A stretch of 64,000 nucleotides of DNA from the IMG/VR virus record IMGVR_UViG_3300046810_000041, positions 1-64,000 of that record; one strand, written 5' to 3'. The position numbers were made by a program, and so were the translations under genes. This stretch comes from a virus (Duplodnaviria; Heunggongvirae; Uroviricota; Caudoviricetes). Below the pieces are notes generated by a model. It made no database searches. It was not told where the DNA came from and was given only the letters and a program-made list of their open reading frames with translations. Shown here one piece after another: positions 3,922-29,192 of the stretch. Each line of letters begins with the position of its first letter. The stretch's first letter is position 1.

Positions 3922-3942
3922 CCAACCCGTTAAATTAACCCT
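3922..3942 (+). promoter_or_regulatory. Putative phage-RNAP promoter, exact 21-mer CCAACCCGTTAAATTAACCCT (copy 1)
   Basis: Identical 21-mer present at 5 sites in the window plus one variant. It is flanked by the inverted repeat gggcggcc/ggccgccc and lies upstream of the SSB gene. Confidence 0.6.
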
Positions 3943-4096
3943 AAGGCCGCCCTCCCCAGAGGGAATCCCAGGAGGGAACCCTCAGCTAAACCCTTGGTTA
4001 GTAGTTAGTTATAAACTATTAACTAAGGAGAATTGATTGTAAGAAGCAGTATTAGCATAATGCTAACAGACTAACATTATTTAAAGAGAATACACC

Positions 4097-4705
4097 ATGG
4101 CAATGATCAAAGGCGCAGAAATCCACTACATCAAATGTGACCCGAAGCGTCCGGATGGTACGTACAACAAGAAGAACCCGTCCTGGCAGGTTCAACTTCG
4201 TACTTCGGATACGGCTCAACGTGACAAGTGGAAAGAACAAGGACTGAACGTCAAACTGCTGACTCAGAAGGCAGAAGGCGCGGAAGAAGATGATCCGAAG
4301 ATTCCGGTTCTGACTGCGGATGGCAAGAAGATCTATCGGGTTAACCTGAAGAAGGGCTCGATTAAGAAAGACGGCTCCAAAGCAGAACCGGTGAAGGTGA
4401 TCAACGGTGCTCTCGAAGACATCGATCCGAACACCATCGCAAATGGCTCGATTGCCAATGTCCGTGTCTTCCAGTACGACTACAAGACCGAAGACGGCAA
4501 AGAAGGTATCGCTTCTATGCTGATGGCCATTCAGGTCACTAAGCATATTGTGTATGTGCCTAAAGCACGCGATGACGACTTCGATGTCGAAGAGACCGAG
4601 ACCATCGCAGCACAAGAAGAAATCGGTATGGACGATGATGACCAGCCGAAGGAAAAGAAGAAACCTGCAGCTACTCCGGCAGGTCGCAATGACGATGATT
4701 TCTAA
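4097..4705 (+). CDS. Single-stranded DNA-binding protein, T7 gp2.5-like
   Basis: 202 aa with a highly acidic C-terminal tail ending ...NDDDF (aromatic C-terminal residue as in T7 gp2.5). Position directly after the promoter in the replication module. Confidence 0.65.
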   Translation: MAMIKGAEIHYIKCDPKRPDGTYNKKNPSWQVQLRTSDTAQRDKWKEQGLNVKLLTQKAEGAEEDDPKIPVLTADGKKIYRVNLKKGSIKKDGSKAEPVKVINGALEDIDPNTIANGSIANVRVFQYDYKTEDGKEGIASMLMAIQVTKHIVYVPKARDDDFDVEETETIAAQEEIGMDDDDQPKEKKKPAATPAGRNDDDF

Positions 4706-4720
4706 TCATCAAGTAGTGTA

Positions 4721-4760
4721 GTGTAATACCGGGAGGGTCCTTGAGGCTCTCCCTAATTAT
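4721..4760 (+). repeat. Conserved intergenic element GTAATACCGGG-hairpin-CCCTAATTA (family copy 1)
   Basis: gtaataccgggagggtccttgaggctctccctaattat. Shares its 5' and 3' flanks and a hairpin with the elements at 9404 and 16941. Confidence 0.45.
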
Positions 4761-4777
4761 TGTTATGTGAGAATACA

Positions 4778-5482
4778 ATGAACAACTGGTTTAATGTGCT
4801 GAATCAAGCAGGTAATGTGACTCAGGCAGGTAAAGATTTCAACAAGCTTACGGTGGTCCCTGAAGGACATACTGTGCATATCTTTATTGATGGCAAGCGC
4901 AATACCATCCTCAAGAACCAAGACCAACTCGACGGCTGGCTCGAAGGTCAACAACGTAAATTTGCCTGGAAACCTGAAATGACTGAACAATTTGGACAAC
5001 ATACCATGACTGCAATCGCCCAACTGAATGGTATCGGTACTGACATCAACAATGCAATCAAAGGCCTGAGCAATGCGTTCGGCCCTGTGAGCAACTACAA
5101 TCCACCAAAAGAGCTGATTGGCACTCATGACCTGACGCGCGGTAATGTGGCCAAGATGTCTGACTTGACGGGTACTACCGAAGGGTTCGCAGATAACTAC
5201 GATGCTAAAGGTGGTGCAAGTCATTACAAGGACATTGTGCCGGGTATGCAGTACATGGAAATGATGCAGTACATGCTGGCAAAGTTCACTGGTGTTGAAG
5301 CACACCTGATGGGCCAGCTCTATAAGTATCTGATGCGTTGTGGTAACAAGGATGCCACTCTCCAGGAACTCACCAAGGTTCACTGGTATCTGGAATTCCT
5401 GATGGCATGGCACAAGAATGGTTGCAAGCCGTTCACTCACGAAGAGCAGCTGCGTCTGCTGGCCATGGAATCGGTTCTCTAA
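4778..5482 (+). CDS. Hypothetical protein (234 aa)
   Basis: ORF whose start carries the conserved context GAGAATACAATG. No motif recognised. Confidence 0.55.
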   Translation: MNNWFNVLNQAGNVTQAGKDFNKLTVVPEGHTVHIFIDGKRNTILKNQDQLDGWLEGQQRKFAWKPEMTEQFGQHTMTAIAQLNGIGTDINNAIKGLSNAFGPVSNYNPPKELIGTHDLTRGNVAKMSDLTGTTEGFADNYDAKGGASHYKDIVPGMQYMEMMQYMLAKFTGVEAHLMGQLYKYLMRCGNKDATLQELTKVHWYLEFLMAWHKNGCKPFTHEEQLRLLAMESVL

Positions 5483-5494
5483 GAAAGGCTAAGT

Positions 5495-7384
5495 ATGCCA
5501 CCACATCTGACAAAGAGACTTCTATTCGACATCGAAACTGATGGACTCCTCGTTACAGTAAGTGTAGCTCACATTGTGGGTTACCTGGACCTTGATACAA
5601 ACATCAAGAAAAGCTTCCGTGAAGGTGACGAAGGCTGGCGTGAAGACTTCGACCAGTGCAGACTGTTCGTAGGCCACAACATTATCGGTTATGACTTCCC
5701 GGCAATGTACAAAATCTTCAAGTGGCGTCCACACCCTGCAGCAAACATCCATGATACCATGCTGATGTCCCAAGCTCAGAACTATAGAAGGTTCATGAGC
5801 GGAACTCACAAGCTGGAAGATTGGGGTAATTTCCTGGGTTATCCTAAGGGTGATCATAGTGATTGGTCCAAGTGGACTCCTGATATGCAGATCTATTGGG
5901 AACGAGACATTGACCTGAACAAGAAAGTCTATGACTACTTGCTCGGTGAGTTCCGCGTTCTAATTGGTCGTAACATCTTCTTCAAGAAGTCTCTACAGAA
6001 CGAGCACATGGTTGCTAAGTTCTGTGCTAGAGCGCATGAAGTAGGCTGGCTCTTCGATAAGAAGTCTGGTCATGAGCTGCTGGCTGAAATGAAACAAGCT
6101 CTGCTGGACACGGAAGCAATCATTGTTCCGAAGCTGTTGGTAAAGACTGTAGCAATTGATAAAGTAAAAGGCGAGGTTGAGCCTAAGAAACCGAAGTGGC
6201 TGAAGAACGGCTGCTATGATATCCATACCTGCAAGTATTTCGGGATCACTCCTGAATCCGGTAAGGACGAAGATAATATGCTAGTGGTAGGTCCGTACTC
6301 TCGAATTGAGTTCGTAAATCCTACACTAAAGAATATGGAAGATGTGAAGACTTGGCTCTTCAGCATTGGTTGGGAACCTGACGACTGGAACCTCAAAAAG
6401 GAGCCAGATGGAACATGGCGTAAGGTTTCTCCGAAGCTGTCTGAGTCTTCGCTTCTGGCTTTAGGGCCGGATGGTGAATTGATTAACGACTACACGACTA
6501 CAAAATCTCGACATTCGATCCTGGAAGGCTGGCTGAGTTCCCTGGATGAGAATGATCGAATTCGTGGAGGTTGCTTCACCATTGCAACACCCACAGGTCG
6601 AGCACGGCACTCCGAGGTATGTAATGTACCCGGTGCAGAAGCTCCTTGGGGGAAACAGATCAGGTCGCTGTTCATCGCAGACCCTGGCTGGAAGATTGTT
6701 GGCGCTGACTCGTCTGGTAATCAGTTCCGAGCTTTGTGCCACTATCTGAAGAATGACAAATACACCGAGCTTGTGTTAACAGGTGATGTGCACCAAGAGA
6801 ATGCAAACGTTCTCACGGACATTCTTCAAGACATCGGTGTCTATAACTCCGAGCAGAAGGTGCCTCGTAAGACAGCTAAGCCTTTCATCTATGCATTCTT
6901 ATTTGGTGCAGGCGGTGAGAAGCTGTCGTTGATCGTGCTGGGTACACGTAACAAAAAGATTGGTAACAAGCTGAAGAATGAGTTCATTAAGCGAGTTCCT
7001 GGTCTGGAGCAACTGGTCGATAAAGTAACGAAGTTCTATTACAAGACCGAGCAGTATGGTAAGCCTTACATTCCAGGTGCGGATGGACGTAGGGTGTATT
7101 GTGACTCTCCGCATAAAGCACTGAACTATCTGCTTCAAGATTTTGAGGCTATTAGCTGTAAAGCAGCTGTGGCTTACATTATGGAGAAGTGTGAGAAGGA
7201 AGGTGTGCCATATATCCCACTCATCTGGTATCATGACGAATTTGAAATCATGGTTCCGGAAGAACACGCTGAGAAAGTCAGAGAGTGGAGTATCGAAGCC
7301 TACAGAGAATCAGGCAAGGAGTTTGGCATGATGATTCTGGATGGTGCAGGTAAAGTTGGTGATTCGTGGTATGATGTTCACTAA
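5495..7384 (+). CDS. Family A DNA polymerase with 3'-5' exonuclease domain
   Basis: Exo I motif DIETDGL and Exo II motif HNIIGYDFP. Pol motif A DSSGNQFR, motif B RKTAKPFIYAFLFG, motif C YHDEF. Confidence 0.9.
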   Translation: MPPHLTKRLLFDIETDGLLVTVSVAHIVGYLDLDTNIKKSFREGDEGWREDFDQCRLFVGHNIIGYDFPAMYKIFKWRPHPAANIHDTMLMSQAQNYRRFMSGTHKLEDWGNFLGYPKGDHSDWSKWTPDMQIYWERDIDLNKKVYDYLLGEFRVLIGRNIFFKKSLQNEHMVAKFCARAHEVGWLFDKKSGHELLAEMKQALLDTEAIIVPKLLVKTVAIDKVKGEVEPKKPKWLKNGCYDIHTCKYFGITPESGKDEDNMLVVGPYSRIEFVNPTLKNMEDVKTWLFSIGWEPDDWNLKKEPDGTWRKVSPKLSESSLLALGPDGELINDYTTTKSRHSILEGWLSSLDENDRIRGGCFTIATPTGRARHSEVCNVPGAEAPWGKQIRSLFIADPGWKIVGADSSGNQFRALCHYLKNDKYTELVLTGDVHQENANVLTDILQDIGVYNSEQKVPRKTAKPFIYAFLFGAGGEKLSLIVLGTRNKKIGNKLKNEFIKRVPGLEQLVDKVTKFYYKTEQYGKPYIPGADGRRVYCDSPHKALNYLLQDFEAISCKAAVAYIMEKCEKEGVPYIPLIWYHDEFEIMVPEEHAEKVREWSIEAYRESGKEFGMMILDGAGKVGDSWYDVH

Positions 7385-7389
7385 ATAAA

Positions 7390-7545
7390 ATGGATCCGGT
7401 AGAGTACCTCGAAAGCTTAATAAGCAACGTAACTAAGATGCCAGTTCAAAAGAACGAACTGGAGCTTCTCAAACGATTCATTGAACTGGATCGAGTACGC
7501 AAAGAGGCTGCTCTACTGGCCTCAATTGCACAAACAGGACTTTAG
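7390..7545 (+). CDS. Small hypothetical protein (51 aa)
   Basis: Short ORF immediately after the DNAP stop. Not in the track because it is under 60 aa. Confidence 0.25.
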   Translation: MDPVEYLESLISNVTKMPVQKNELELLKRFIELDRVRKEAALLASIAQTGL

Positions 7546-7550
7546 CATAC

Positions 7551-7739
7551 ATGAACATAAACTTGCTTAGTAAGAAAGCAAAGCTCATCAAACGAACTTA
7601 CAAAGAAGGTTATATCACTGCCCGAAATGGCGATGACTATGGATTTTCGGATGCATGGGAACGAAGTGGTGCCAAAATGGACCATGACGCGTTGTTGAAG
7701 AAGATCGCTAAGCTTAGCCTGAAACACCGTATCAAATAA
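7551..7739 (+). CDS. Hypothetical basic protein (62 aa)
   Basis: ORF in the co-directional string. Confidence 0.4.
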   Translation: MNINLLSKKAKLIKRTYKEGYITARNGDDYGFSDAWERSGAKMDHDALLKKIAKLSLKHRIK

Positions 7740-7774
7740 GTAGTAAAGCGGGTTGTGTAGAATTGCCCTCATGC

Positions 7775-7795
7775 CCAACCCGTTAAATTAACCCT
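7775..7795 (+). promoter_or_regulatory. Putative phage-RNAP promoter, exact 21-mer (copy 2)
   Basis: Exact CCAACCCGTTAAATTAACCCT, flanked by the inverted repeat gccctca/tgagggc. It lies upstream of the lipoprotein gene. Confidence 0.6.
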
Positions 7796-7845
7796 CTTGA
7801 GGGCTTGCAGTACAACATCAATACTAAACTAACTGAAAGTATACA

Positions 7846-8637
7846 ATGAAGAAATTTGCTCTGATGATTATGGTTGCCCTGTCGATGGCAGCATGCACTC
7901 GCGTTCCGACTGGTGAAGTTGGTCTCCGTGTTAACTGGGACAAGACCATCGAAGCGAAAGAGCTGGTTGCTGGTTCGGTCAATCAAACCATCATCGGTGA
8001 CGTCGAGAAATTCCCGATCAAGGAAATCTCGGCAGAAGTGAATGACCTGTCTCCTCTGGCGGCTGACAATAGCACGATGAAGGATTTCGACATCGCAGTT
8101 GTCTACAACCTGAACCCTTCTTCGGTATCCGAACTGTACACCAAGAAGAGTCATTCGTTCCATGCCACCGCAAGGGACACTGGCGATACGTTGCTGATGT
8201 ACTCGTATATCCAGCTGACTGCCCGCAATGCAGTCTTCAAGGAAGCACGAAAGTACGCAGCACTGGAAATGAATGACAAGCGTACTCAGATCGAATCCGA
8301 TATCCTGGCAACCATGAAAGCAACTCTGGCTGCAGAAGGTCTCGGTAACGATATCACCATCTCACAGATCCAGGTCAAGAGCATTGCGCCTTCGGATGCT
8401 GTGAAACAATCGGCTGATGCACTGGTTCGTTCCCAGAATGAACAGAAGCAAAAGCAGATCGAAGTGGGTACTGCGAAGCTGGAATCCGAGCGTATCGCTG
8501 CATTGAACGCCAATGCGGGTGCTATCGGTTACATGCAAGCACAAGCCCAGATGAAAATTGCCGAAGGTATCGCCAATGGCAAGGTTCAAACCGTTGTGGT
8601 GCCTTATGACTTCAAAGGCATGATCAGCGTGAAGTGA
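7846..8637 (+). CDS. SPFH/band-7-like lipoprotein
   Basis: Signal peptide with lipobox MIMVALSMAAC. The segment MKDFDIAVVYNLNP resembles the SPFH core, and a C-terminal coiled coil is typical of HflK/C-like proteins. Confidence 0.5.
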   Translation: MKKFALMIMVALSMAACTRVPTGEVGLRVNWDKTIEAKELVAGSVNQTIIGDVEKFPIKEISAEVNDLSPLAADNSTMKDFDIAVVYNLNPSSVSELYTKKSHSFHATARDTGDTLLMYSYIQLTARNAVFKEARKYAALEMNDKRTQIESDILATMKATLAAEGLGNDITISQIQVKSIAPSDAVKQSADALVRSQNEQKQKQIEVGTAKLESERIAALNANAGAIGYMQAQAQMKIAEGIANGKVQTVVVPYDFKGMISVK

Positions 8638-8783
8638 TGAAAGGTATCCCTTACAAGGATACGTTCGCAGCAAAGGGCTCGGAACTTTATCGAGCTCTTA
8701 CTGAGGGTACTCCTCAACAAGCAAAACAAGTGTACGATGCAACTACGGCTCGTATGAAATCATTAATTGAAAAGAAAGCATAA
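8637..8783 (+). CDS. Small hypothetical protein (48 aa)
   Basis: ATG overlaps the upstream TGA (TGATG). Confidence 0.25.
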   Translation: MKGIPYKDTFAAKGSELYRALTEGTPQQAKQVYDATTARMKSLIEKKA

Positions 8784-8788
8784 ACGAA

Positions 8789-9169: not shown

Positions 9170-9203
9170 TACAAACACTGTTCAATAACGTCGAGAGAAT
9201 ACA

Positions 9204-9392
9204 ATGCAACACAAGCAAAAAGCAGTTAGCGCAGTCGGTCAAGAAGCACTGGCACGTCGTCTGAAATCGCCGGGTCACCAGCCGTTCAATCTGGCCCCGA
9301 GCAAGATCAATCGTACGGGCAAGAAGAAAGGCGGCGATCGCACCGTCTATCCGAAGCGCGGCGATTACGCTGTCCAGGCGGTTGCGCAGTAA
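9204..9392 (+). CDS. Small basic protein (62 aa)
   Basis: ORF with the GAGAATACAATG start context. Confidence 0.4.
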   Translation: MQHKQKAVSAVGQEALARRLKSPGHQPFNLAPSKINRTGKKKGGDRTVYPKRGDYAVQAVAQ

Positions 9393-9403
9393 GCTGCAGT
9401 AAA

Positions 9404-9445
9404 GTAATACCAGGGTGGTCTCTAACAAGGGATCACCCTTATTAA
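9404..9445 (+). repeat. Conserved intergenic element GTAATACCAGG-hairpin (AGGGTGGTC...GATCACCCT)-TATTAAT (family copy 2)
   Basis: A 28-nt core agggtggtctctaacaagggatcaccct identical to 16949-16976. It forms a 9-bp stem with a 10-nt loop. Confidence 0.5.
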
Positions 9446-9468
9446 TCTAATCGTGGAATATAGCATAC

Positions 9469-16940: not shown

Positions 16941-16981
16941 TGTAACACAGGGTGGTCTCTAACAAGGGATCACCCTTTTTA
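16941..16981 (+). terminator. Conserved element family copy 3: hairpin agggtggtc...gatcaccct followed by TTTTT
   Basis: The same 28-nt core as 9412-9439, here followed by a T5 run. Lies directly after the nrdA stop. Confidence 0.55.
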
Positions 16982-16995
16982 ATTGAGAGTATACA

Positions 16996-19053: not shown

Positions 19054-19139
19054 TCGTTAAAAGAGCGGTTATAAGGGTATCTTATATGAAGAATGTAAGA
19101 TATCCTTCAATCATTGTGTAGAATATACTGGAATAAATA

Positions 19140-20326: not shown

Positions 20327-20620
20327 ATGAACAGTTTGGAAATGCTGTTGGCCCAAGGCGCTGAAGAAGGTAGCGAGTTTGCACAAGCATGTGTGAAGAT
20401 TCTTCGCTTCGGTCCTGATTCTACCTTTCAAGGTGAATCTAATCTCATGCAACTTCGCAAGGAGTTCATTGATGTGTTGGGCGTAGCAAGTCTGTTGCAA
20501 GATGAAGGCCTTCTGCCGAGGATGAATGACCCTGAAGTAGCATTCGGCGTTCAAGCTAAGCGCGAGAAGGTGAAACGTTACATGGATGTGTCCGAGCAGT
20601 TGGGCACCCTGCAGCGTTAA
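20327..20620 (+). CDS. Hypothetical protein (97 aa)
   Basis: ORF with the AGGAATACAATG start context. Confidence 0.45.
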   Translation: MNSLEMLLAQGAEEGSEFAQACVKILRFGPDSTFQGESNLMQLRKEFIDVLGVASLLQDEGLLPRMNDPEVAFGVQAKREKVKRYMDVSEQLGTLQR

Positions 20621-20657
20621 TAGTAGTACATTCAAATATACTGATAGAAAGCATACA

Positions 20658-21497
20658 ATGAACCACGCAATCGAAACCGCAAAACTGAATCAAGTCCTGG
20701 CAACCTTCTTCGGTGTTCCCGAGCACAAGTGGCTGGCAGGTCCTGAAGGTGTGTGGGTTGAGACTCTCAAGCAGGAAATGGCTGAACTCGGCCTGATGCT
20801 GGCAGGTGGCACCATCACCAGTATCTTCACTGGCAAGCACGTCAACGACCTGGACTTCTACATCAAGGACGAGCGTGACCTCAAGAAGGCTCAAGACTTC
20901 TTCCTGCGTGTGTTCCACAACGGGAAGGACATGCCGTATATCTCCCGTAATGCGGCTACCTACAAGCGCAAGTCGGACAAGTCGGCAAAGGTCTGGACGA
21001 TTCAGCTGATCAGCCGTTTCACTGGCAACCCATGGCAGATCATGGGCTGGTTCGATTTCACCATCACCCAAGGTGTGTATGACTTTGGTGCTCGTTGGGA
21101 AATCATCGATGAAAGGAAAGTATTCATCGGAGACTTCTTCTTTGGTGACCGTTTCTTCCAGGACATTGGTAAGCGCAAGCTGGTTTACCTGGGCTCCTCG
21201 AAATATCCGATCTGCGCAATGCATCGGACCAAGAAGTACATTGCCAGGGGTTATGATTGCCCTGGTAGCACTATCATGCACATCGCTCTGTCAATCGTGC
21301 AACTGAAGATCGAGAACTATGGGCAGCTGAAAGATCAGCTCATGGGCATCGATACTTCTTATCTCCAGAACCTGCTGGGTGAAGATCGTTACAACGATGC
21401 TCTCCCGGTTGACTATGGTACTTTCCTCCAGGAAGCTCTGGATTCGATCAACGGCTTCGCTTATGAAGATCACATCGAGGAAGATGGCTCACTGTAA
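20658..21497 (+). CDS. Nucleotidyltransferase-fold protein (Pol-beta superfamily)
   Basis: GGTITSIFTGKHVNDLDFYI fits the minimal nucleotidyltransferase signature G[GS]x(9-13)DhD. Start trimmed to the ATG with the CATACAATG context. Confidence 0.5.
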   Translation: MNHAIETAKLNQVLATFFGVPEHKWLAGPEGVWVETLKQEMAELGLMLAGGTITSIFTGKHVNDLDFYIKDERDLKKAQDFFLRVFHNGKDMPYISRNAATYKRKSDKSAKVWTIQLISRFTGNPWQIMGWFDFTITQGVYDFGARWEIIDERKVFIGDFFFGDRFFQDIGKRKLVYLGSSKYPICAMHRTKKYIARGYDCPGSTIMHIALSIVQLKIENYGQLKDQLMGIDTSYLQNLLGEDRYNDALPVDYGTFLQEALDSINGFAYEDHIEEDGSL

Positions 21498-21676
21498 TCA
21501 AGCAAGAGTCAAAGGTCGGGAGTTGTTTGACGATGTGGAGTTGCTTAATCTCTCCAATAAGTTTGCAACACCCGACGTTGAAGCACCATCAGCACACCGT
21601 ATTAAGATGACTAAACGGGATTTGGTGGCATACACACATGCAGTAATTGTAGAAACTTTAAATAGGATAAACCGAA

Positions 21677-22015
21677 ATGAGCAACCAAGCACAAGTACTC
21701 AAGATTCAAGCAGCAGACCGCACCAAGACCTTTCATTCCCGCGTGGAAGCGAAACGTCGCAGCAACGAGGACATCATTCAGGAGTTGATGCAACACTCCA
21801 AGTTTGGTGGACTGGCTCAAGCGTTCGTGATGGCAGGTCTGCGGGTGTATGCAGAATCGATCGCCTCGACGGAGCGTCCGGAAGCACAGCCGAATGCAGT
21901 AATCGATCCGGCTTTGTGGCACGACATCGCGACCGACACTTTCGAGCGTTTGGAAATGATGTATAAGCAGAACAATGAAGTAGTTGTATCGAGCATCATC
22001 GATCTGGCGGCCTAA
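21677..22015 (+). CDS. Hypothetical protein (112 aa)
   Basis: ORF with the ATAAACCGAAATG start context. Confidence 0.5.
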   Translation: MSNQAQVLKIQAADRTKTFHSRVEAKRRSNEDIIQELMQHSKFGGLAQAFVMAGLRVYAESIASTERPEAQPNAVIDPALWHDIATDTFERLEMMYKQNNEVVVSSIIDLAA

Positions 22016-22083
22016 GTCAGACGATTGCAGTAAGTGGCCTAATAAGCCCACATTCTAATATTACACCAAGAGGAATATTTATC

Positions 22084-22395
22084 ATGACGAAGAAAATCAA
22101 AGACTTAGCAATTCTGGACTTGGCAAATCTGCCGAACGCTCTCAAGACTGTCTACGTTGATCATAACAACGTGATTGTCAAGGTGAACCGCAGCAAAGAT
22201 CTGTTGAAGTCCGCTGCTACTTGTTTGATGCATATGCAAACGAACCAGTATGGCGCAAAATACGCAGAGATTCTTGATGCGGATACTGAGAAGCGTTATG
22301 CGATGATCAAACGTCCGATTCGCGGTGAACTTAAGGTCGAGTACGATTGGGACCCTGAGCAAACCGTGTATGGCGTCAGTGTGTTGTTGAAGTAG
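22084..22395 (+). CDS. Hypothetical protein (103 aa)
   Basis: ORF in the co-directional string. Confidence 0.45.
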   Translation: MTKKIKDLAILDLANLPNALKTVYVDHNNVIVKVNRSKDLLKSAATCLMHMQTNQYGAKYAEILDADTEKRYAMIKRPIRGELKVEYDWDPEQTVYGVSVLLK

Positions 22396-22460
22396 TAGTA
22401 GAAGTAGCCCGGAGCCTCAAAACTCCGGGTTTCACCATGTAATCTTAACTCCACGTTATA

Positions 22461-23297
22461 ATGAAAAATAAACCGCTCGTGATTTACCATGCAAGTTGCC
22501 TCGATGGTTTTGGTGCTGCATTCGCATTCTGGAAGGTGTTCGGCAAGAACGCTGATTATCATCCGGGTGTGTATGGAGACCCTTGCCCCGATGTAACTGA
22601 TCGTGATGTTTATATGTTAGACTTCGGCTACAAGCGTAATGTGGTTGAAGGCATGGTTAAGTTTGCCAAGAGTGTAACGCTGATCGATCACCATGTGACA
22701 ACGATTAATGCTCTGGCAGACGTTGATGGTATCGACCGCTATACCGATATTCATCAATCGGGTGCTGTTTTGGCCTGGAAGTACGCACAAGATGTTCTGT
22801 TCCTGGATGCTGAGATTCCGCAACTGATCAAGCATATTCAGGATCGTGACCTCTGGAATTTCGAATTACCTTTTACGAAGGAAGTTATCGCTGGTTTGTC
22901 CAGTTATGATTTCAACTTCATGGATTGGGATTCGATCATCTACGAAGTGGGTAATGAATTCCTGATCCAGGAAGGCAACACTATTCTCCGCTACCACAAG
23001 AAGAATCTGTTGCAAGTACTCGAAGAATGCACTCGCGAAATGTTCATCGTGGGTGAGCCTGTACCCTGCGCCTCTGTGCCATATTTCATGGCCTCAGATG
23101 CAGGTGAAATTCTGAATAAAGGCAAACCGTTCTCTGCAACGTATTATGACACCGACAAGCATCGTGTGTTCAGTCTTCGTTCTGAGAAAGGTAAGGGTTG
23201 GGATGTGTCTGCAGTTGCTGCTCAATACGGCGGCGGTGGTCACAAGCATGCAGCAGGGTTCATGGTAACCCGTCAGCATCACCTGGCTAAAGTCTAA
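22461..23297 (+). CDS. DHH-family phosphoesterase (NrnA/RecJ-like core)
   Basis: The four DHH-family motifs are present: YHASCLDGFGAA, LDFGY, LIDHH and YGGGGHKHAAG (GGGH). Confidence 0.7.
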   Translation: MKNKPLVIYHASCLDGFGAAFAFWKVFGKNADYHPGVYGDPCPDVTDRDVYMLDFGYKRNVVEGMVKFAKSVTLIDHHVTTINALADVDGIDRYTDIHQSGAVLAWKYAQDVLFLDAEIPQLIKHIQDRDLWNFELPFTKEVIAGLSSYDFNFMDWDSIIYEVGNEFLIQEGNTILRYHKKNLLQVLEECTREMFIVGEPVPCASVPYFMASDAGEILNKGKPFSATYYDTDKHRVFSLRSEKGKGWDVSAVAAQYGGGGHKHAAGFMVTRQHHLAKV

Positions 23298-23387: not shown

Positions 23388-23606
23388 AGCACTACCAAAG
23401 AAGTCAAGTCGAAATCCCTGGGTGAACTGCAAGAAGCCTCCATCAAGGCAACTCTCCTGTTCCGCAAGGCTCAAGAAGACTTTGTCAAAGCGCAGGAAAA
23501 CCTCAAGGTCCGCCAGAACCAGCATGTTACGGCTATTCTTCAATTGAATGATGAATTCGCCAAGGTTCGCCGCGAGTGCGAGGTTGCCCCGCTGGGCAGT
23601 CTGTGA
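23388..23606 (+). CDS. Hypothetical protein (72 aa)
   Basis: ORF trimmed to the ATG that follows the terminator. Confidence 0.4.
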   Translation, partial: STTKEVKSKSLGELQEASIKATLLFRKAQEDFVKAQENLKVRQNQHVTAILQLNDEFAKVRRECEVAPLGSL

Positions 23607-23732
23607 GCCTGTGATGGGTTTCACCGACCTGTTCTTCCCGCGTGTCACCACGGACCAACCTGGTAGGCAGGTGACGGTGCGTGTGCTCAAGTCCCGGTCT
23701 GAGTTCAGCAGTCCGTACGGTCTGGTTCTCCG

Positions 23733-23753
23733 CCAACCCGTTAAATTAACCCT
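23733..23753 (+). promoter_or_regulatory. Putative phage-RNAP promoter, exact 21-mer (copy 3, tandem pair)
   Basis: Exact CCAACCCGTTAAATTAACCCT followed by GAAAGGGAACGA. It is the first of two copies 64 bp apart. Confidence 0.6.
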
Positions 23754-23796
23754 GAAAGGGAACGACGAGGAAGGTCAGCTGCGGTCTACCGCCAAT

Positions 23797-23817
23797 CCAA
23801 CCCGTTAAATTAACCCT
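23797..23817 (+). promoter_or_regulatory. Putative phage-RNAP promoter, exact 21-mer (copy 4, tandem pair)
   Basis: Exact 21-mer with the same downstream GAAAGGGAACGA. It is the second unit of a roughly 64-bp tandem duplication upstream of the gene at 24004. Confidence 0.6.
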
Positions 23818-24003
23818 GAAAGGGAACGAGGAAGTTCGGCTGGCTTGCTGTCTCCAGGACGCTATGTCTTTTGGACTTCCTCACCTGAACACGCTTTAAC
23901 CTATACTCCGTAAAACTGCGGGTTTATAGGCATCTTATATGAAGAAGGCTCATAAGAGTTGACTTCGAATTCCATTACTTTTAAATTGAAACGAGAATAC
24001 ATC

Positions 24004-24441
24004 ATGACGAACGCAACCGAAAACCAGATCATCGACAACGCAGAAGCAACCGCACCGACCGTCGCCAAGAAGAAAGGCGCTGTCGCCCTGCTGAAGAAGC
24101 GCGCACTGTTCGAAGCTCCGGATGGCACCATCTTCGAAACCCAGAAGGAAGCCACCGAGTACCTGCGCCGCCACCTGAAAGTGGATGCTGTCAATGCTGT
24201 CGCTGCACTGTTCACGGGCGTCGATGCTGAAGGCAACGAGCAGACTCTGGGCCAATTCCTGCTGTCGAACGAAGATGCAATCCGCAAGGCATACGATGCT
24301 GCCAAAGTGGAACGCGCTCCGGTCACGGAAGAAACCAAGGCCAAGATGCGTGCTGCACGCGCCAAGCTGAAAGGTGAAGTCGCTCCGGCAGACCAAACCC
24401 CGGCTGATGCAGAAACCCAAGGCGATGCTCAAGCTGAGTAA
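24004..24441 (+). CDS. Hypothetical acidic/Ala-Lys-rich protein (145 aa)
   Basis: ORF trimmed to the ATG with the GAGAATACATCATG context. Confidence 0.5.
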   Translation: MTNATENQIIDNAEATAPTVAKKKGAVALLKKRALFEAPDGTIFETQKEATEYLRRHLKVDAVNAVAALFTGVDAEGNEQTLGQFLLSNEDAIRKAYDAAKVERAPVTEETKAKMRAARAKLKGEVAPADQTPADAETQGDAQAE

Positions 24442-24820
24442 TCGCGATCTAAGGAAAGTAGTTCGACTATAGAGATACTATAGCGGATCGAAATCCTTGG
24501 ACTACCCTTTGTTGAGCTTGCACTCAACTCCCGGCCCTATATAGACCTGAAATCTGTATAGGGCCACCTTTCTAATCTAATCTTAGACGATAAATAGTTA
24601 TGATCTGGCCGTAGTGTATTGAGTACATTTGAATAGACGATAATTGGATGAGTGACGCCTTTAGGGCATTGATAAGATTAGAGTGCCAGAATGGGTCTGG
24701 TATTCGCTTTGTTAAATATAATTAATATGATTTGGCGTTAGATTAGGGGGCATCGACCGAGTGTGGAGCTAACGGGATGCCCTCATTAACTAACGTAGTA
24801 GGATTTACCTAACAGAAACC
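24442..24820 (+). repeat. Repeat-rich non-coding region: palindromes CTATAG...CTATAG and ggccctata...tatagggcc, direct repeat TAGACGATAA x2, several further hairpins
   Basis: No protein-like ORF is present. Multiple inverted and direct repeats are read directly. Confidence 0.4.
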
Positions 24821-24892
24821 GCCACAGGTAAATCTACAGTAGCTCTTTATTGAGTTGCCGTAGATTTACCTGTGGCCTTTTTTTTTTTTTTT
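24821..24892 (+). terminator. Strong intrinsic terminator: perfect 17-bp stem (gccacaggtaaatctac/gtagatttacctgtggc) followed by T15
   Basis: Perfect inverted repeat with a T-tract immediately after it. It closes the replication module. Confidence 0.7.
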
Positions 24893-24915
24893 CGTTCCCT
24901 TTGTAAATAGCTGAG

Positions 24916-25182
24916 ATGAATACACCGCAACCTATCCCTGCAATCGCTTCGGAAGCAGAAACCTACGATAGTGAATTTCTGCTCAATCGTGCAACTATGA
25001 TGAAACGCCGTAAAGGTTTCATTAGTGGTACCAAGATTAAGAATCCAGATGGCTCTTATACAGTCACCTGGGTTCCAGCATCACCTGCAATTAAGGTTGG
25101 TGGTAGTAAGAAGAGGATTCGTCCTCGGATCAGTAGTAATGCAGTTCGTAATACCTTCTCACCTGGTGCAAGCCAGCTGTAA
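24916..25182 (+). CDS. Hypothetical protein (88 aa), first gene of the AT-rich island
   Basis: ORF. Confidence 0.4.
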   Translation: MNTPQPIPAIASEAETYDSEFLLNRATMMKRRKGFISGTKIKNPDGSYTVTWVPASPAIKVGGSKKRIRPRISSNAVRNTFSPGASQL

Positions 25183-25187
25183 CACCT

Positions 25188-25209
25188 AGCGTCCCTTAAT
25201 TGGGGCGCT
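25188..25209 (+). promoter_or_regulatory. Hairpin agcgtccc-TTAATT-ggggcgct carrying the exact palindrome CCCTTAATTGGG
   Basis: The same 12-mer occurs in the loop of the 28832-28901 hairpin, with variants at 23316 and 78-89. Confidence 0.4.
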
Positions 25210-25226
25210 TAATTATTGAGGATGTA

Positions 25227-25424
25227 ATGCTTCCTATTAACGAAGTAAAGAAGTTTGAGTATAAGGGTGAGTTGTTTGACACTTATGCTGAAGCTGAAAG
25301 AGCAAAATACGTGGATGAAATTGAAACGTATCTTGGCCGGGAATGCAATCTTGAATCCTGGCAACTAGAAGGCGTGTTAGAGGCACTCTTAAAACAGTAC
25401 GATATCACGCTTAAGACTAAATAA
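25227..25424 (+). CDS. Hypothetical protein (65 aa)
   Basis: ORF trimmed to the ATG after the hairpin. Confidence 0.35.
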   Translation: MLPINEVKKFEYKGELFDTYAEAERAKYVDEIETYLGRECNLESWQLEGVLEALLKQYDITLKTK

Positions 25425-25439
25425 TCTTTAGGATAAATC

Positions 25440-25946
25440 ATGGAACACAACCAGCAACCGAAGCCTACGAACCACACCTCGCCAGTAACTTACAATCTCC
25501 GCCGTGAAGAACGTCACATGGTTGATATGATTGCTCAGGCGCAAGGGACTCCAGGTGGGCCATCGGGCAGTAAATCCCAAGTAGTAAGGGATGCTATTCG
25601 CTTCTATGCCATCGCGCATGACCAGCAAGCCCAAGGTCATCGTATGGTGTTCATCGGTGCAGACGGTAAGACAACGGAGATCAGTGAACTCTGGCACAAG
25701 CCAATCAGTAGTATGGCTGCTCCTGGATTCCCTCCCGCTCCAATCCCTGCTGTGGCGAATCAAGATGTACCCGCTGTACCTGCTGTGGTAGCACCTGCAA
25801 CTGCAGTAACGAGGGCTCCTGATGATGTTCAAGCATTGCTCAAGGCGATGTTGACGATCAACAAGGATCCTGGGTTTGAAACCATGGTTAACTCCATGGG
25901 TGTGGAAGTTCTCATCAACATCGGTAAGCAACTGCTGAATAAGTAA
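25440..25946 (+). CDS. Hypothetical protein, possible ribbon-helix-helix DNA-binding regulator
   Basis: KSQVVRDAIRFYAIAH resembles RHH/Arc-MetJ-type strand-helix segments. Weak evidence. Confidence 0.4.
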   Translation: MEHNQQPKPTNHTSPVTYNLRREERHMVDMIAQAQGTPGGPSGSKSQVVRDAIRFYAIAHDQQAQGHRMVFIGADGKTTEISELWHKPISSMAAPGFPPAPIPAVANQDVPAVPAVVAPATAVTRAPDDVQALLKAMLTINKDPGFETMVNSMGVEVLINIGKQLLNK

Positions 25947-25957
25947 TAGGATATAAA

Positions 25958-26752
25958 ATGGAACACAAGGAATATCGCCTCGTCTGCAACAATCGTCGTT
26001 ATATCATCAAGCTGGATCCTACCAAAGTTCTGGAAACGACTTCGGTAACGACTGATAGCTCAAGTAAGATGTCTCTGTCTTACTTCGGTCTGAACGGCAG
26101 TGTCACCAGCTCGTTCTCGACTAACGACGAGGAGAGCAAGAAAAGCGTCACGGCATTCTTGTGGCGTGAGTTGGCTCGTATGCATCATCGCGAGTTGGGT
26201 GAACGTCAGCCGGAACCTCCGCGTGTCGTTGGTATCCGCACCTTAACGAATACACGTCCTCGCCCGAATCCGAATGGTGGCCGTGCTTACGCACAAGCTA
26301 TTCTGGACAATGGTGGTTTGGAAGGTATGGCCAAGCTTGCTCACCAGGCTTTTGAGTTGCGCATCAAACAGCTGGAGCAAGAATTGGCTGAGAAGGATGA
26401 GCGTCTCAACAACGCAATGGCTGCAATTGATTCCCGCGATGTAACTATCCGGGCTCAACGTGCAGAGAACATGCGTCTGCAGCATGAGTACCGCGCTCAG
26501 GCCTTCAATGAAGTGAAGAAGGAATTTGAAGAGCGTGAGAAGAAGCTGCATGCATCGGTTGATACGTGCCACCAGAAGGTTCGTATGTTTGATGAAGCTT
26601 GCAAGCGTGCTATCCTGGGCTCCCGTGGTTTGGTTATCATCGATACCAGTGAACAGGCCGATGAAGAAACCAAGATCGGTAATGCCGGGACGGTCGCTGA
26701 AGTGCAAGATCGTCTGCTGCAAGCCTGCAATCGTCGTATGGGAGAATTCTGA
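25958..26752 (+). CDS. Hypothetical coiled-coil protein (264 aa)
   Basis: ORF with a long heptad-like region LRIKQLEQELAEKDERLNNAMAA... Confidence 0.5.
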   Translation: MEHKEYRLVCNNRRYIIKLDPTKVLETTSVTTDSSSKMSLSYFGLNGSVTSSFSTNDEESKKSVTAFLWRELARMHHRELGERQPEPPRVVGIRTLTNTRPRPNPNGGRAYAQAILDNGGLEGMAKLAHQAFELRIKQLEQELAEKDERLNNAMAAIDSRDVTIRAQRAENMRLQHEYRAQAFNEVKKEFEEREKKLHASVDTCHQKVRMFDEACKRAILGSRGLVIIDTSEQADEETKIGNAGTVAEVQDRLLQACNRRMGEF

Positions 26753-27147
26753 TGAGCAACTCTATCAAACCCTCTACGATTCTGATGCGTGCTTGTAACG
26801 CAATCGGTGTTGGTGAAGAGCATGGCATTCGTGTATTCTGCTGTAACGCGATCACGAAGGTTGTGTTTGACTATGTGCATGCGGGCAAGAAAGTCAAACC
26901 GCATTGGGATGAGCAGACGCATGAAGAGCTGGCGTACCTGCGTAATCTGTCCGAGTATAAAGCAGCTATGAAGTATCTGCTGATGTTCGCTCCGGATTGG
27001 GTTGTGGCGGACATGCTGACTTCCAACCCTCTGCATGAGAAGATGGAAGACGCTGTGTGGTTCCGTTATAGCACTCCTGGTTGTTTCGATGAGCGTATCA
27101 TTGCTCTGTCGATGGCTGCTTATATGGCCAAATCTGAAGGTAACTAA
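26752..27147 (+). CDS. Hypothetical protein (131 aa)
   Basis: ORF whose ATG overlaps the upstream stop. Confidence 0.45.
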   Translation: MSNSIKPSTILMRACNAIGVGEEHGIRVFCCNAITKVVFDYVHAGKKVKPHWDEQTHEELAYLRNLSEYKAAMKYLLMFAPDWVVADMLTSNPLHEKMEDAVWFRYSTPGCFDERIIALSMAAYMAKSEGN

Positions 27148-27265
27148 CCTGTAGTACTGTAGTCGAGGGCGCTTTCATAGGCCCTCAGTTGTTTAATTGT
27201 TTATTGTTTAACTGTTCGTATATTTCCGTTATTAGGATAAGCTAACATTATAAAAGGAAGTCATA

Positions 27266-27772
27266 ATGGCTCAATGGTCCATGCTACTAGATTCATCTCG
27301 TTCGCCAATGTATGGAGCAATAGTTGCACGCTCTGTACCTGAAGCAAAGCGAAAGTGTCTGATTCGGGGAGTGCCTGAGAACCTGATTCTAGAGTTTTAC
27401 CTGGGTATAAATCAGCCAACTGGTTTAGACTTTGCTAAATGGCTCGTCAAAGTTGATCAAGACTTTAATGGCGGGTTCATCCCAAAACATTTCACCTTCT
27501 ATGTACATTCGCAGAATGAAGAGGGGCGTGAAGCGATTAACACTTTGTTGAACGACTACCTGGAGGAACGTCGTAATAAATGGATTCAAGAGTTAGGCTT
27601 TGAAGATCGTAGAGACCGAAGGTCGAAAGAATATGTCCTCGAAGAGCGCCGCAAAAATCCTCCGAAGTTAGGTAGAAGGATTAAGCCAAGCATCTTATGG
27701 GGTAATCTTGATGGTTCAGACTTTGCTTTACACACTCGAAACAAACTGATTGAAGACAAAAGGAAACACTAA
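27266..27772 (+). CDS. Hypothetical protein (168 aa), AT-rich
   Basis: ORF. Confidence 0.45.
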   Translation: MAQWSMLLDSSRSPMYGAIVARSVPEAKRKCLIRGVPENLILEFYLGINQPTGLDFAKWLVKVDQDFNGGFIPKHFTFYVHSQNEEGREAINTLLNDYLEERRNKWIQELGFEDRRDRRSKEYVLEERRKNPPKLGRRIKPSILWGNLDGSDFALHTRNKLIEDKRKH

Positions 27773-27774
27773 GA

Positions 27775-27966
27775 ATGAAAAAGTTGTTTGTTACCACTTA
27801 TAACAAAACTACGGGTCACCTGAGCAGTAAAGTTGTTGAATTTCATACGAAGGCTGGTGCAGACGCGTTTATTAAATTGGCAGAGGAAAGGACTGTCAGT
27901 GATAACTATCCAATTGGTTATCAAGTAGTACCGATGTATGACGAAGAGCAGGGTTATTCATTTTAG
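27775..27966 (+). CDS. Hypothetical protein (63 aa)
   Basis: ORF. Confidence 0.35.
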   Translation: MKKLFVTTYNKTTGHLSSKVVEFHTKAGADAFIKLAEERTVSDNYPIGYQVVPMYDEEQGYSF

Positions 27967-27983
27967 GTATTAGGAGGTGTATC

Positions 27984-28355
27984 ATGAGTATCTTCGGTAG
28001 GGCAAAGGACAAGGTCGTAGAGAAATCATCTGATCTTGCCCGTCAAGCAGTAAGAGCAGTGAAGGGTCGTCCGAATGTTCAAACGAATCTCTCGGATGAA
28101 ACGGAGAAGGGTGGTAGAAAGAAGGTAGCACCGCAGTATCGGTCTGGGGCGAAAACTTCTCAGAATCAACAGAGGTCTAGCTCCAAGAACGCTTCTCCGA
28201 AAGGCTATAGTGAAAGGCTTCCGAAAGACTTGCCTCCTCCGGTATCACCTAATGATCCTCCCACAAAGGAACTAAGGGTGATACCAAGGCAGTTCTCGAA
28301 AGTGATGGATAGAATCACTCCTAAAGCCATACGGGATAGAAAGGAACATGATTAG
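27984..28355 (+). CDS. Hypothetical basic, low-complexity protein (123 aa)
   Basis: ORF with S/K/P/Q-rich composition. Confidence 0.35.
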   Translation: MSIFGRAKDKVVEKSSDLARQAVRAVKGRPNVQTNLSDETEKGGRKKVAPQYRSGAKTSQNQQRSSSKNASPKGYSERLPKDLPPPVSPNDPPTKELRVIPRQFSKVMDRITPKAIRDRKEHD

Positions 28356-28489
28356 TTTTTCGTTGCTAATTGTGGTAAGTAAATGCTTGAGAATAAAAAT
28401 CTGAAAGAGACAGAAGGTAGAGCACTTCCTTAATAATTCTACCAAGAGTTATTAATCAGTGCTCTACCTTCATCAACCCGAGACTTAAA

Positions 28490-28819
28490 ATGAAAAATAA
28501 ATTGTATCGAGTAGTAACTGGTAAGCCGTTTGTGGATAAATTCTACCATGCATTCTTCAAGGGCACTTTGGTGAAAACTAAAGATGAACCTGTGTATGGT
28601 ATGGTGTATGTTGTTGGAGAACATCCGCCTCATAGTGGTACAGCCTTAGGGCAGACTGTGAGGGAGAAAGATCTTGTGCTCGTATGTGAGTTCAACGATT
28701 CAAGAAACAAACGAGAAGGTAGTTTTAAGAAGCGTCGTGAGAAGAAAGCCCGAAAGGGCATCGTGGTAGTAGATATTGAAGCAGTACCAAATGCTGTACT
28801 CATGAAGTTAGCAGCATAA
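28490..28819 (+). CDS. Hypothetical protein (109 aa)
   Basis: ORF. Confidence 0.45.
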   Translation: MKNKLYRVVTGKPFVDKFYHAFFKGTLVKTKDEPVYGMVYVVGEHPPHSGTALGQTVREKDLVLVCEFNDSRNKREGSFKKRREKKARKGIVVVDIEAVPNAVLMKLAA

Positions 28820-28831
28820 GATTTCTCCTTT

Positions 28832-28916
28832 GGCGGCCCTAGGCTCCCTCTCTAAACATTCCCTTAATTGGGTTTGTTTAGAGAGGGAGCCTAGGGCCGC
28901 CTATTTTTTTTTTTTT
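28832..28916 (+). terminator. Very strong terminator: perfect 27-bp stem (28832-58/28875-901), loop containing CCCTTAATTGGG, then T13
   Basis: Perfect 27-bp inverted repeat ggcggccctaggctccctctctaaaca/tgtttagagagggagcctagggccgcc, followed by TAT and then T13. Confidence 0.7.
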
Positions 28917-29171
28917 GTTCTCTCAACAATAATGCTCTACGGTTACGCCTAATCCAGAGTATTGCCAGGAGCAAAGCTTGTGTCGGTCTAGGACGAGGGC
29001 TCAGACGCCTCACGAACGCTGTGCCTCGGACCAACCTGCTAGGCCTCCGGTCCAACCTGTCACCGAGAAACGGGCCAGCTAGCCAGGGCAACCGAGGGTC
29101 AATATAGAGCAATAGATCTTAGTTGTAGTTGTATAATAAAAGATAGAAAATCCCAATACGACTACCCTCGT

Positions 29172-29192
29172 CCAACCCGTTAAATTAACCCT
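29172..29192 (+). promoter_or_regulatory. Putative phage-RNAP promoter, exact 21-mer (copy 5) with a leader homologous to the region downstream of copy 1
   Basis: Exact 21-mer. The downstream sequence CTAAGCGCCGCCTCCCCTAGAGGAAC... parallels 3943-3975 CTAAGGCCGCCCTCCCCAGAGGGAAT... Confidence 0.6.

Follow-up and report, generated by a model that had tools for sequence, protein, structure and literature searches.

Promoters of the class II and III type in the Autographiviridae phages T3 and T7 are contiguous blocks of ~21–23 bp that lie on the coding strand before gene blocks and are read by the phage's own T7-like RNA polymerase (RNAP), and hairpin-plus-U terminators bound the transcription units. 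Xanthomonas phage Xp10, a long-tailed siphovirus, pairs a T7-like RNAP with promoters of its own that serve part of the genome. Phage N4 runs a programme in which a virion RNAP (vRNAP) transcribes the early genes, RNAPII the middle genes, and host RNAP the late genes (PMC4496689). Here, we describe the 21-mer CCAACCCGTTAAATTAACCCT, which occurs in five exact copies on the + strand of a 64,000-nt stretch of a Caudoviricetes genome (IMG/VR record IMGVR_UViG_3300046810_000041, positions 1 to 64,000; hereafter, the window). The 21-mer is very probably, judging by sequence comparison, a promoter for a phage-encoded RNAP. It resembles the T3/T7 promoters in size, contiguity, strand, and position before gene blocks, and the window has both a T7-like RNAP of its own and hairpin-plus-U terminators that bound its units.

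The original prediction, made from the letters of the window, had proposed that five identical 21-mers and one variant are a promoter set. All of them were recovered (Table 1): the five exact copies and, also on the + strand, the variant CCAACCCGTTAGATTAACCCA, which differs by two substitutions (A12G and T21A). No further copy was found on either strand of the window at up to three mismatches. As a control for chance, 100 dinucleotide shuffles of the window gave no match (six observed vs. none expected), bearing out the claim that the repetition is not accidental. The conserved unit is exactly 21 nt, because the directly adjacent bases on either side differ among the copies. Every gene of the window lies on the + strand, and the non-coding gaps, ~10% of the window, hold all six copies. 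Two mechanical open reading frames (ORFs; 3905–4036 and 23548–23808) overlap copies but have no homologues in ~200 related loci, whereas the real gene beside copy 1 (3689–3892) has 66 homologues in the same loci. T-runs aside, the 21-mer is the sole word that is repeated three or more times in the intergenic DNA of the window. The proposal that the copies stand directly ahead of gene blocks holds in general but not for the variant, which sits inside the tRNA cluster; both of its substitutions also occur among the copies of relatives. Copies 3 and 4 lie within a 64-nt tandem duplication (97% identity over 36 nt). Copy 5 heads a block that runs through tRNAs, terminase, and structural genes, and over 67 nt, its leader matches that of copy 1 at 73% identity.

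A cognate enzyme is encoded near the start of the window. The 758-aa single-subunit RNAP matches T7 and mitochondrial RNAPs (E ~1e-37 by phmmer), carries the DFRGR (DxxGR) motif together with motifs A, B, and C, and has relatives in at least 494 IMG/VR stretches. It is only ~27–29% identical to T7-group enzymes and 125 aa shorter; the RNAP of Xp10 is a detectable homologue at 29% identity. The phage itself, predicted to be siphovirus-like, also departs from the 40-kb T7-type podovirus: it exceeds 64 kb and has a tape-measure protein, tRNAs, and a second RNAP, which is fused to a MuF head protein (MuF-RNAP, described below).

We searched IMG/VR with the degenerate core AACCCGTTNANTTAACCC and found it in at least 117 stretches; the counts that follow in this paragraph are among the matches listed. 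Homologues of window proteins at 30–70% identity are encoded by 113 of the 122 fetched loci. The exact 21-mer is present in five IMG/VR contigs, whose RNAPs are 56–60% and whose proteins are 30–70% identical to those of the window. Because it is kept where proteins are only 30–70% identical, the 21-mer is far better conserved than the surrounding coding sequence. None of 126 copies in relatives lies inside a protein match, and all those with an identified downstream homologue share its orientation. Moreover, the positions recur. A copy lies ~40 nt before the SSB gene in 25 loci (and in most of the RNAP-anchored loci introduced below), matching copy 1; ~10 copies lie 0.7–1.4 kb before TerL, matching copy 5; ~10 follow homologues of 20586–23297, including the tandem pairs of L003 and L007, which correspond to copies 3 and 4; and ~12 lie 2–5 kb upstream of the RNAP gene. 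A pre-capsid copy, present in 38 loci, lies 5–8 nt after the MuF-RNAP gene and 100–350 nt before the scaffold-position gene and the major capsid protein (MCP) gene. The earlier observation that the late structural module of the window lacks copies is right, and this lack is particular to the window phage.

A motif-blind set of loci was picked by RNAP similarity alone (the best 80 of the 494 IMG/VR stretches; 51–69% identity; 1.08 Mb). At up to three mismatches to the 18-nt core, this set holds 96 copies on the gene strand vs. 1 on the opposite strand, and at least one copy is present in 69 of the 80 loci. The original prediction had also pointed to coding DNA and the opposite strand as places to look for copies; the window has none in either, and the relatives show the 96:1 strand ratio and none within protein matches. 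The 21-mer is constant in both AT-rich and GC-rich relatives. The family consensus, as read from these sequences, is nnA[A/C]CCCGTTAAATTAACCC[T/A], in which positions 1 and 2 are free and positions 4, 11–13, and 21 are the softest. A16 and T10 are invariant in 171 unique copies, a set picked at up to three mismatches to the core, which inflates the conservation somewhat.

Among deposited phages, EBPR siphovirus 1 (JF412302) carries a variant motif, GACCGTTnnATTAACCCA, at three sites: ~40 nt before gp9, ~550 nt before the terminase gene, and just past the MuF-RNAP gene, ahead of the capsid gene. Its terminase and capsid sites are syntenic with copies in relatives of the window. Of cultured phages, the roseophages DSS3_VP1 and DSS3_PM1 (Naomviridae) come nearest and share with the window the RNAP (34% identity), SSB, PolA, MuF-RNAP (34%), MCP (41%), and TerL (~60%); a megablast of 12 kb against 50,697 phage genomes gave no match and thus no close sequenced relative. 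DSS3_VP1 contains neither the window 21-mer nor the EBPR-type motif. It has a motif of its own, ATAGGGTGCGTTAAAGAGGGGG (ATAGG[G/T]T[G/A]CGTTAAAGA), with 11 + strand copies vs. 0.01 expected in 50 kb (NC_055826, 2242–46567). Written with its 3′ end, the motif is ATAGG[G/T]T[G/A]CGTTAAAGA(G)GGGG, also given as ATAGG[G/T]T[G/A]CGTTAAAGAGGGGG or, for the 11 sites, as ATAGGGTGCGTTAAAGA. One copy lies ~50 nt before the SSB homologue, and three lie in tandem before the portal gene; phoH is also preceded by the motif. The 13 kb ahead of the RNAP gene gave none. The motif is unannotated, and the Naomviridae paper mentions neither an RNA polymerase nor a promoter motif. It has CGTTAAA in common with the 21-mer but differs in its flanks and in its G-rich 3′ end, continuing with GAGGGGG, a T7/T3-like G-rich initial sequence. 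The 21-mer is thus kept at 51–69% RNAP identity and replaced by a related motif before SSB at 34%, and it therefore behaves as a polymerase-specific promoter. Promoter sequence tracks polymerase lineage, from the kept core through the EBPR variant to the diverged motif of DSS3_VP1.

The proposal of a phage-RNAP promoter is supported by these comparisons and held in every computational test able to speak against it, namely the enzyme, orientation, synteny, the 96:1 strand ratio, and the DSS3_VP1 counterpart. As in T7-type systems, a contiguous block is repeated on the gene strand, the copies are intergenic and co-oriented, and the genome encodes an RNAP with catalytic motifs. We considered it quite improbable that the 21-mer is instead the site of a phage DNA-binding regulator, either an operator or a MotA-like activator box that redirects host RNAP. 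Its perfect 5-bp inverted repeat (GTTAA-A-TTAAC) would suit such a site, as would the positions before gene blocks. However, the flanks lack symmetry, with CCC on either side in place of CCC/GGG, and a dyad operator has no need of the 96:1 orientation; no −10-like element follows at a fixed distance, the downstream sequence being variable; and the element stays constant in relatives both AT-rich and GC-rich, whose hosts presumably differ. A host sigma-70 promoter at the 21-mer was rejected: the scan for −35 and −10 hexamers spaced 16–18 bp apart gave no match at any copy, and its overall counts were at or below shuffle expectation. An intrinsic terminator was likewise excluded, as no T-run follows any copy and the true terminators are elsewhere.

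The second polymerase lies between the portal and capsid genes as a 1639-aa protein. Its RNAP part (approximately residues 640–1639) contains motif A (LEQDASSSGAQ; DASSSGAQ), motif B (RKAAKAQNMVTFYGAG; KAQNMVTFYGAG), and motif C (TIHDAF; IHDAF), and its homologues have a DHRxR element farther upstream. An AlphaFold (AF2) model of residues 640–1639 (mean pLDDT of 78.8 and pTM of 0.76) matches the T7, yeast mitochondrial, and human mitochondrial RNAPs over 900–1000 aligned columns (E down to 2e-12 and probability of 1.0). A phmmer search of the C terminus against PDB sequences returned no match, the RNAP being visible only by Pfam, motif inspection, and fold comparison. Because Pfam, motifs, and fold agree, we infer that the protein joins a MuF/SPP1-gp7-type head protein to a second single-subunit RNAP of full length. 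We found 221 homologues, in which the C-terminal polymerase part is often a separate ~450-aa ORF in contigs. By tblastn against the 50,697 deposited phages, MuF-RNAP is confined to EBPR siphovirus 1 and DSS3_VP1/PM1 (4 phage records); Xp10, at 44 kb also smaller than the window phage, gave no homologue. The deposited homologues (DSS3_VP1 gp108 and EBPR siphovirus 1 gp47/gp49) are annotated as head proteins only, and in EBPR siphovirus 1, the gene is split by an HNH endonuclease gene (gp48; L204, 28929–29849). MuF-RNAP is a candidate for a virion-packaged, injected polymerase. Virion RNAP modules have been reported only in N4-like phages, where they are fused to a metallopeptidase (Iyer et al. 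2017, PMC5512222), and we found nothing relevant in the literature on virion RNAP in siphoviruses or on EBPR siphovirus. The 2916-aa protein of the window was considered as an N4-type vRNAP and rejected; it is the tape-measure protein.

A second promoter-like motif, M2, is recognisable only through the relatives and not from the repeated words of the window, which has two copies (Table 1). It spans ~30 nt with the consensus aaa.tGCGgaAAaa..gGTATCTTATATGAaa (short form, GCGGAAAA-N6-GTATCTTATATGA). Across the RNAP-anchored loci (L124–L203) and the window, its word ATCTTATATG occurs 128 times on the gene strand vs. 3 on the opposite strand (107 unique copies). Relatives typically have two or three M2 copies 0.9–3.5 kb upstream of the 758-aa RNAP gene, and in 51 of 56 loci, the first promoter-like element met when reading upstream from that gene is M2, not the 21-mer. 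The motif does not change across AT-rich and GC-rich relatives. DSS3_VP1 has no M2-like motif in the 50 kb examined. The 21-mer lies 49–179 nt upstream of M2 in 17 of 136 unique M2 copies, and some genes would therefore be served by both. A simple sigma-70 promoter was rejected for M2, as the conserved bases are GCG rather than TTG and the −10-like hexamer ends in A in more than half of the copies. M2 is a candidate early promoter for MuF-RNAP. With two phage polymerases and two phage-specific motifs, a division of labour is suggested, in which M2 serves the early genes, including that of the 758-aa RNAP, and the 21-mer serves those that follow.

The phrase "the phage RNAP" in the original prediction was borne out in that a cognate 758-aa enzyme is encoded, but it is ambiguous beside a second RNAP. 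By genome layout, the 758-aa enzyme is the likely reader of the 21-mer, because the copies are spread genome-wide, the RNAP gene lies behind M2, and the DSS3_VP1 motif is absent from the early region of that phage; the copies are dispersed before middle and late genes. That MuF-RNAP reads the 21-mer, injected or active before packaging, while M2 is the promoter of the 758-aa RNAP, strikes us as unlikely. MuF-RNAP does have a complete T7-like fold and catalytic motifs, and in relatives, the 21-mer is found at the boundary ahead of the whole early region, the expected start for an injected enzyme, and, in the 38 loci noted above, directly past the MuF-RNAP gene. About one-fifth of copies also have a short hairpin with a 3- to 10-nt loop, a loose echo of the N4 vRNAP hairpin promoters (PMC4496689). 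In contrast, copies are found in front of replication, tRNA, and capsid genes alike, not at one genome end, whereas the few injected vRNAPs of N4 serve left-end promoters only (PMC4496689). Moreover, M2 precedes the RNAP gene in 51 of 56 loci; on this reading, the 758-aa enzyme would have to be produced from the very promoter that it reads. Most copies have no hairpin, and the GTTA-AAT-TAAC palindrome shows no compensatory change.

With the 758-aa RNAP as reader, a cascade from M2 to the RNAP to the 21-mer can be proposed because the RNAP gene lies behind M2 in relatives. Host RNAP or injected MuF-RNAP would act early at M2, and the 758-aa RNAP made from the M2-led early region would then transcribe from the 21-mer promoters. 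These would drive the middle genes (replication, nucleotide metabolism, and tRNAs), and the late structural genes of the window would be reached by read-through from 29172 and 31285. Within the 21-mer, A3–T10 (AACCCGTT) may be the duplex-recognition region and the A/T stretch TTAAATT the melting region; positions 9–21 are without G and include the A/T-rich TTAAATTAA. The start would fall within TTAA (positions 14–17), most likely at the invariant A16, giving an RNA that begins AACCCU; we give a start at A16 or A17 an even chance. The alignment that we prefer, and hold to be moderately probable on the sequences compared (register b), sets A16 at +1, AACCCG (positions 3–8) against the AACCCT of T3 (−13 to −8), and TTAAATT at −7 to −1. 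The block would then span approximately −15 to +6, as in T7 class III promoters. Register b is favoured because of the DSS3_VP1 alignment (CGTTAAA, then G-rich), the extent of conservation, and the pairing at the block end. In about one-fifth of copies, the AACCCU RNA would pair with a downstream N′GGG into a 5′-terminal hairpin; the leader of T7 phi10 has a similar short stem, formed by the conserved 3′ end and downstream bases, and in copy 2, the final four bases pair with 7800–7803 (CCCT-CTTG-AGGG). Among 167 unique copies, 36 have stems of at least 4 bp, vs. 4.9 in shuffles. Position 21 covaries with the base before the downstream GGG (T with AGGG, 27; A with TGGG, 6; A with AGGG, 0), giving a Fisher p of 4e-5 that is uncorrected for the relatedness of the copies.

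The 21-mer had been described as unlike the promoters of T7, T3, SP6, and K11. This is so for the full 23-bp consensus, which it does not match, and for T7, SP6, and K11, with which it shares at most 5 nt, but it has a 10-nt block, AATTAACCCT, in common with T3 (the T3 sequence was verified). Bases 12–21 agree letter for letter with −17 to −8 of the T3 consensus AATTAACCCTCACTAAAGGGAGA, and AACCC appears again at bases 3–7. Among shuffles of the 21-mer, just 0.18% have a block like this in common with any of the four classical promoters. Unlike T3 and T7, the 21-mer has neither the G-rich initiation sequence (GGGAGA) nor the CACTATA/CACTAAA box. Either the register is not that of T3, or transcription starts only downstream of the entire conserved block.

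Several observations weigh against the 758-aa RNAP starting at A16 of the 21-mer. A second complete RNAP is encoded and offers an alternative reader, and the copy that relatives have ahead of the early region, 2–4 kb before the RNAP gene, is not predicted by a scheme in which the 21-mer depends purely on that RNAP. Position 4 of the motif, compared with RNAP lineage, was uninformative as to the reader, A and C coexisting within genomes. Classical T7-group enzymes initiate with G, but the proposed start has no G at or beside it. The 10-nt identity with T3 suggests, at the level of sequence, another alignment (register a), with the start 6–8 nt downstream of the block, where G is weakly enriched at positions 27 and 28 (46% and 43%). 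Register a would place the 5′ half of the block beyond the region that T7 RNAP is known to contact. On RNA folding, the six window leaders were no more stable than shuffles (z of −0.75 to +0.87), a structured leader being supported only by the covariation in relatives, and about four-fifths of copies have no hairpin.

Copy 1 is flanked by the inverted repeat GGGCGGCC (3913–3920)/GGCCGCCC (3945–3952) and copy 2 by GCCCTCA/TGAGGGC (7765–7771/7798–7804). A C-rich box (..GnCGYCCCCC..) follows copies 1 and 5 and the relatives' copies ahead of the early region. The box or the flanking repeats may be a processing site in read-through RNA. That the 21-mer itself acts at the RNA level only, as an RNase III or RNase E processing site or a protein-binding loop in read-through transcripts, is highly improbable. 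The 7- to 8-bp repeats around copies 1 and 2, with similar ones in L004 and L006, would fit such an element, presenting it as a loop, but they are missing at the other four window copies and in most relatives. Furthermore, conservation is at the level of sequence, without covariation in the first 17 nt; in the whole window, Rfam gave nothing but tRNAs; and copy 5 lies behind a terminator with a 27-bp hairpin and T13, so little read-through RNA is expected there.

The primary origin of T7 coincides with the tandem promoters phi1.1A/B, where origin function is a by-product of promoter activity. The tandem pair of copies 3 and 4, with its non-coding DNA, recalls this arrangement, and large non-coding regions surround copies 3–5. 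As the T7 origin depends on promoter activity, an origin role of the tandem pair would be an added function of the promoters rather than an alternative to them. We regard it as remote that the copies serve in essence for replication (as origin iterons) or packaging (as pac sites) or are left over from a mobile element: they are unclustered, spread over 27 kb at the starts of gene blocks, with no target-site duplications and no associated transposase or endonuclease genes.

The nearest described parallel to the window as a whole is N4. Both have two phage-encoded T7-like polymerases, one of them in a large virion-associated protein (putatively so here) among the head genes, and both have two phage-specific promoter classes and the small polymerase gene in the early region (PMC4496689). 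The N4 vRNAP is a 3500-aa protein with a metallopeptidase module, whereas the putative virion enzyme of the window is a 1639-aa MuF/SPP1-gp7-type fusion, and the small RNAP of N4 is a heterodimer, whereas that of the window is a single 758-aa chain. Unlike in N4, host RNAP may be dispensable late, as the 21-mer precedes late genes in relatives. In the N4 vRNAP promoter, a GC-rich heptamer, its centre near −11, is bracketed by inverted repeats that extrude as a DNA hairpin whose stem is preserved by compensatory changes (PMC4496689). Membership of the 21-mer in this hairpin class was rejected: its internal stem is just 4 bp, all but one A/T (GTTA-AAT-TAAC), and A11G is uncompensated at T15. Confinement to one genome end, as in N4, was rejected as well, since copies lie across 3.9–31.3 kb and, in relatives, before capsid genes. 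Taken together, these features raise the possibility, which we put forward tentatively, of a large and all but undescribed clade of 40- to 80-kb siphovirus-like phages with an N4-like two-polymerase programme built from other parts, in which injected MuF-RNAP reads M2 and the 758-aa RNAP reads the 21-mer for all middle and late genes, independently of host RNAP. The proposed clade takes in at least 494 IMG/VR stretches with an RNAP as well as EBPR siphovirus 1, with the Naomviridae as more distant members. Were this so, the 21-mer would be half of two orthogonal polymerase/promoter systems that are conserved across hosts of very different G+C.

If MuF-RNAP is injected, virion-borne T7-like polymerases extend beyond the N4-like podoviruses, and the MuF "cargo" position is able to carry an entire transcription enzyme. 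We found no description in the literature of either the MuF-fused second polymerase or the second promoter class. The genomes of Naomviridae, which have dU-DNA, have been annotated without promoters and with the second polymerase labelled as "head morphogenesis" only; their regulatory layout is now exposed. The 21-mer set appears to add to the known phage-RNAP promoters, with a consensus that appears to be unpublished; an exact-string literature search for the core returned no papers. The consensus nnA[A/C]CCCGTTAAATTAACCC[T/A] provides a testable promoter sequence for an RNAP clade that has no characterised member, the 21-mer/RNAP pair is potentially useful as an orthogonal transcription system, and transcription units can be drawn for several hundred uncultivated phage contigs.

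Table 1. Coordinates of the polymerase genes, promoter-like elements, and terminators in the window
Feature	Position	Strand	Remarks
758-aa single-subunit RNAP (proposed reader of the 21-mer)	430..2706	+	Pfam RNA_pol (PF00940), 1.1e-64
1639-aa MuF-RNAP	37700..42619	+	Between portal and capsid genes; N-terminal Phage_Mu_F (PF04233), 3e-16; PF00940, 8.4e-12
21-mer copy 1 (M1)	3922..3942	+	155 nt upstream of Gp2.5-like SSB gene (4097–4705); C-rich leader after copy
21-mer copy 2	7775..7795	+	51 nt upstream of SPFH/Band-7 gene (7846–8637)
21-mer copy 3	23733..23753	+	First of tandem pair; CCCT-GAA-AGGG hairpin at 23750–23760
21-mer copy 4	23797..23817	+	Second of tandem pair; upstream of M2 copy (23930–23942) and of gene starting at 23959 or 24004
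21-mer copy 5	29172..29192	+	255 nt past terminator 28832–28916; 165 nt before gene 29357–29731
21-mer variant copy	31285..31305	+	Between tRNA-Arg (31193–31269) and tRNA-Trp (31310–31395); ends 4 nt before tRNA-Trp
M2 copy	19063..19091 (word at 19077)	+	GCGG-N10-ATCTTATATGA, here ..GAGCGGTTATAAGGGTATCTTATATGAAG
M2 copy 2	23916..23944 (word at 23930)	+	GCATCTTATATGA; 113 nt downstream of tandem 21-mers
Terminator	60..127	+	14-bp hairpin, then T17; upstream of RNAP gene
Terminator	24857..24892	+	Hairpin, then T12; ends short unit of tandem promoters
Terminator	28832..28916	+	27-bp hairpin, then T13; very strong; closes block ahead of copy 5

Downstream of the RNAP gene, the order is Gp2.5-like SSB, nucleotide kinase, PolA, SPFH protein, primase-helicase, and RNR, and the later genes include nine or ten tRNAs, TerL, portal, the 1639-aa protein, MCP, and the 2916-aa tape-measure protein. 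Past copy 5, there is no further strong terminator to 60 kb, the limit of the scanned region. The 69-nt gap before the scaffold-position and capsid genes (42620–42688) holds just a degenerate ..ATTAATTAAC.. flanked by a direct repeat, GGGCTGTGCC, present twice; the pre-capsid promoter seems to have been lost or replaced in the window phage. The 430 nt of window sequence upstream of the RNAP gene hold no M2 copy; an extended −10-like TGTTATAAT lies there at 161–169, followed by a 43-aa hydrophobic ORF (190–321). In one relative (L009, 4269–7189), the homologue of the 758-aa RNAP aligns as two pieces, ~680 nt apart.

The 18-nt core was also compared with 596 Gb of bacterial and archaeal genomes, giving 23 matches vs. 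~17 expected by chance, none of them in a relative and none a clue to the host. About 10 of the 23 matches (Hydrogenophaga, Comamonas, and other Comamonadaceae/Burkholderiales) have a single conserved flanking sequence in common. This bacterial element, ..GGCTGATGCAAAACCCGTTAAATTAACCCCCGGACTCCAAAG.., holds the 18-nt core apparently by coincidence (L207, L210, L213, L215, L217, L222–L225, and L227), and no phage homologues were found near it.

Some smaller repeats and genes of the window may be recorded. An 18-mer, CGGACCAACCTG[G/C]TAGGC, is common to 23651–23668 and 29027–29044 and has only these two copies, 65–128 nt upstream of the 21-mers at 23733 and 29172, in large G+C-rich non-coding regions. 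A 36-nt hairpin element (CAGGGTGGTCTCTAACAAGGGATCACCCTT..) at 9411–9446 and 16948–16983 (97% identical) follows two gene blocks and is terminator-like with a weak T-run. Rfam called a tenth tRNA (32137–32208) that ARAGORN missed, and a 93-nt tRNA-Tyr (32262–32354) was called by ARAGORN only, unconfirmed by Rfam. The nucleotide-kinase-like gene (4760–5482) adjoins PolA, as in the dU-DNA phage DSS3_VP1.

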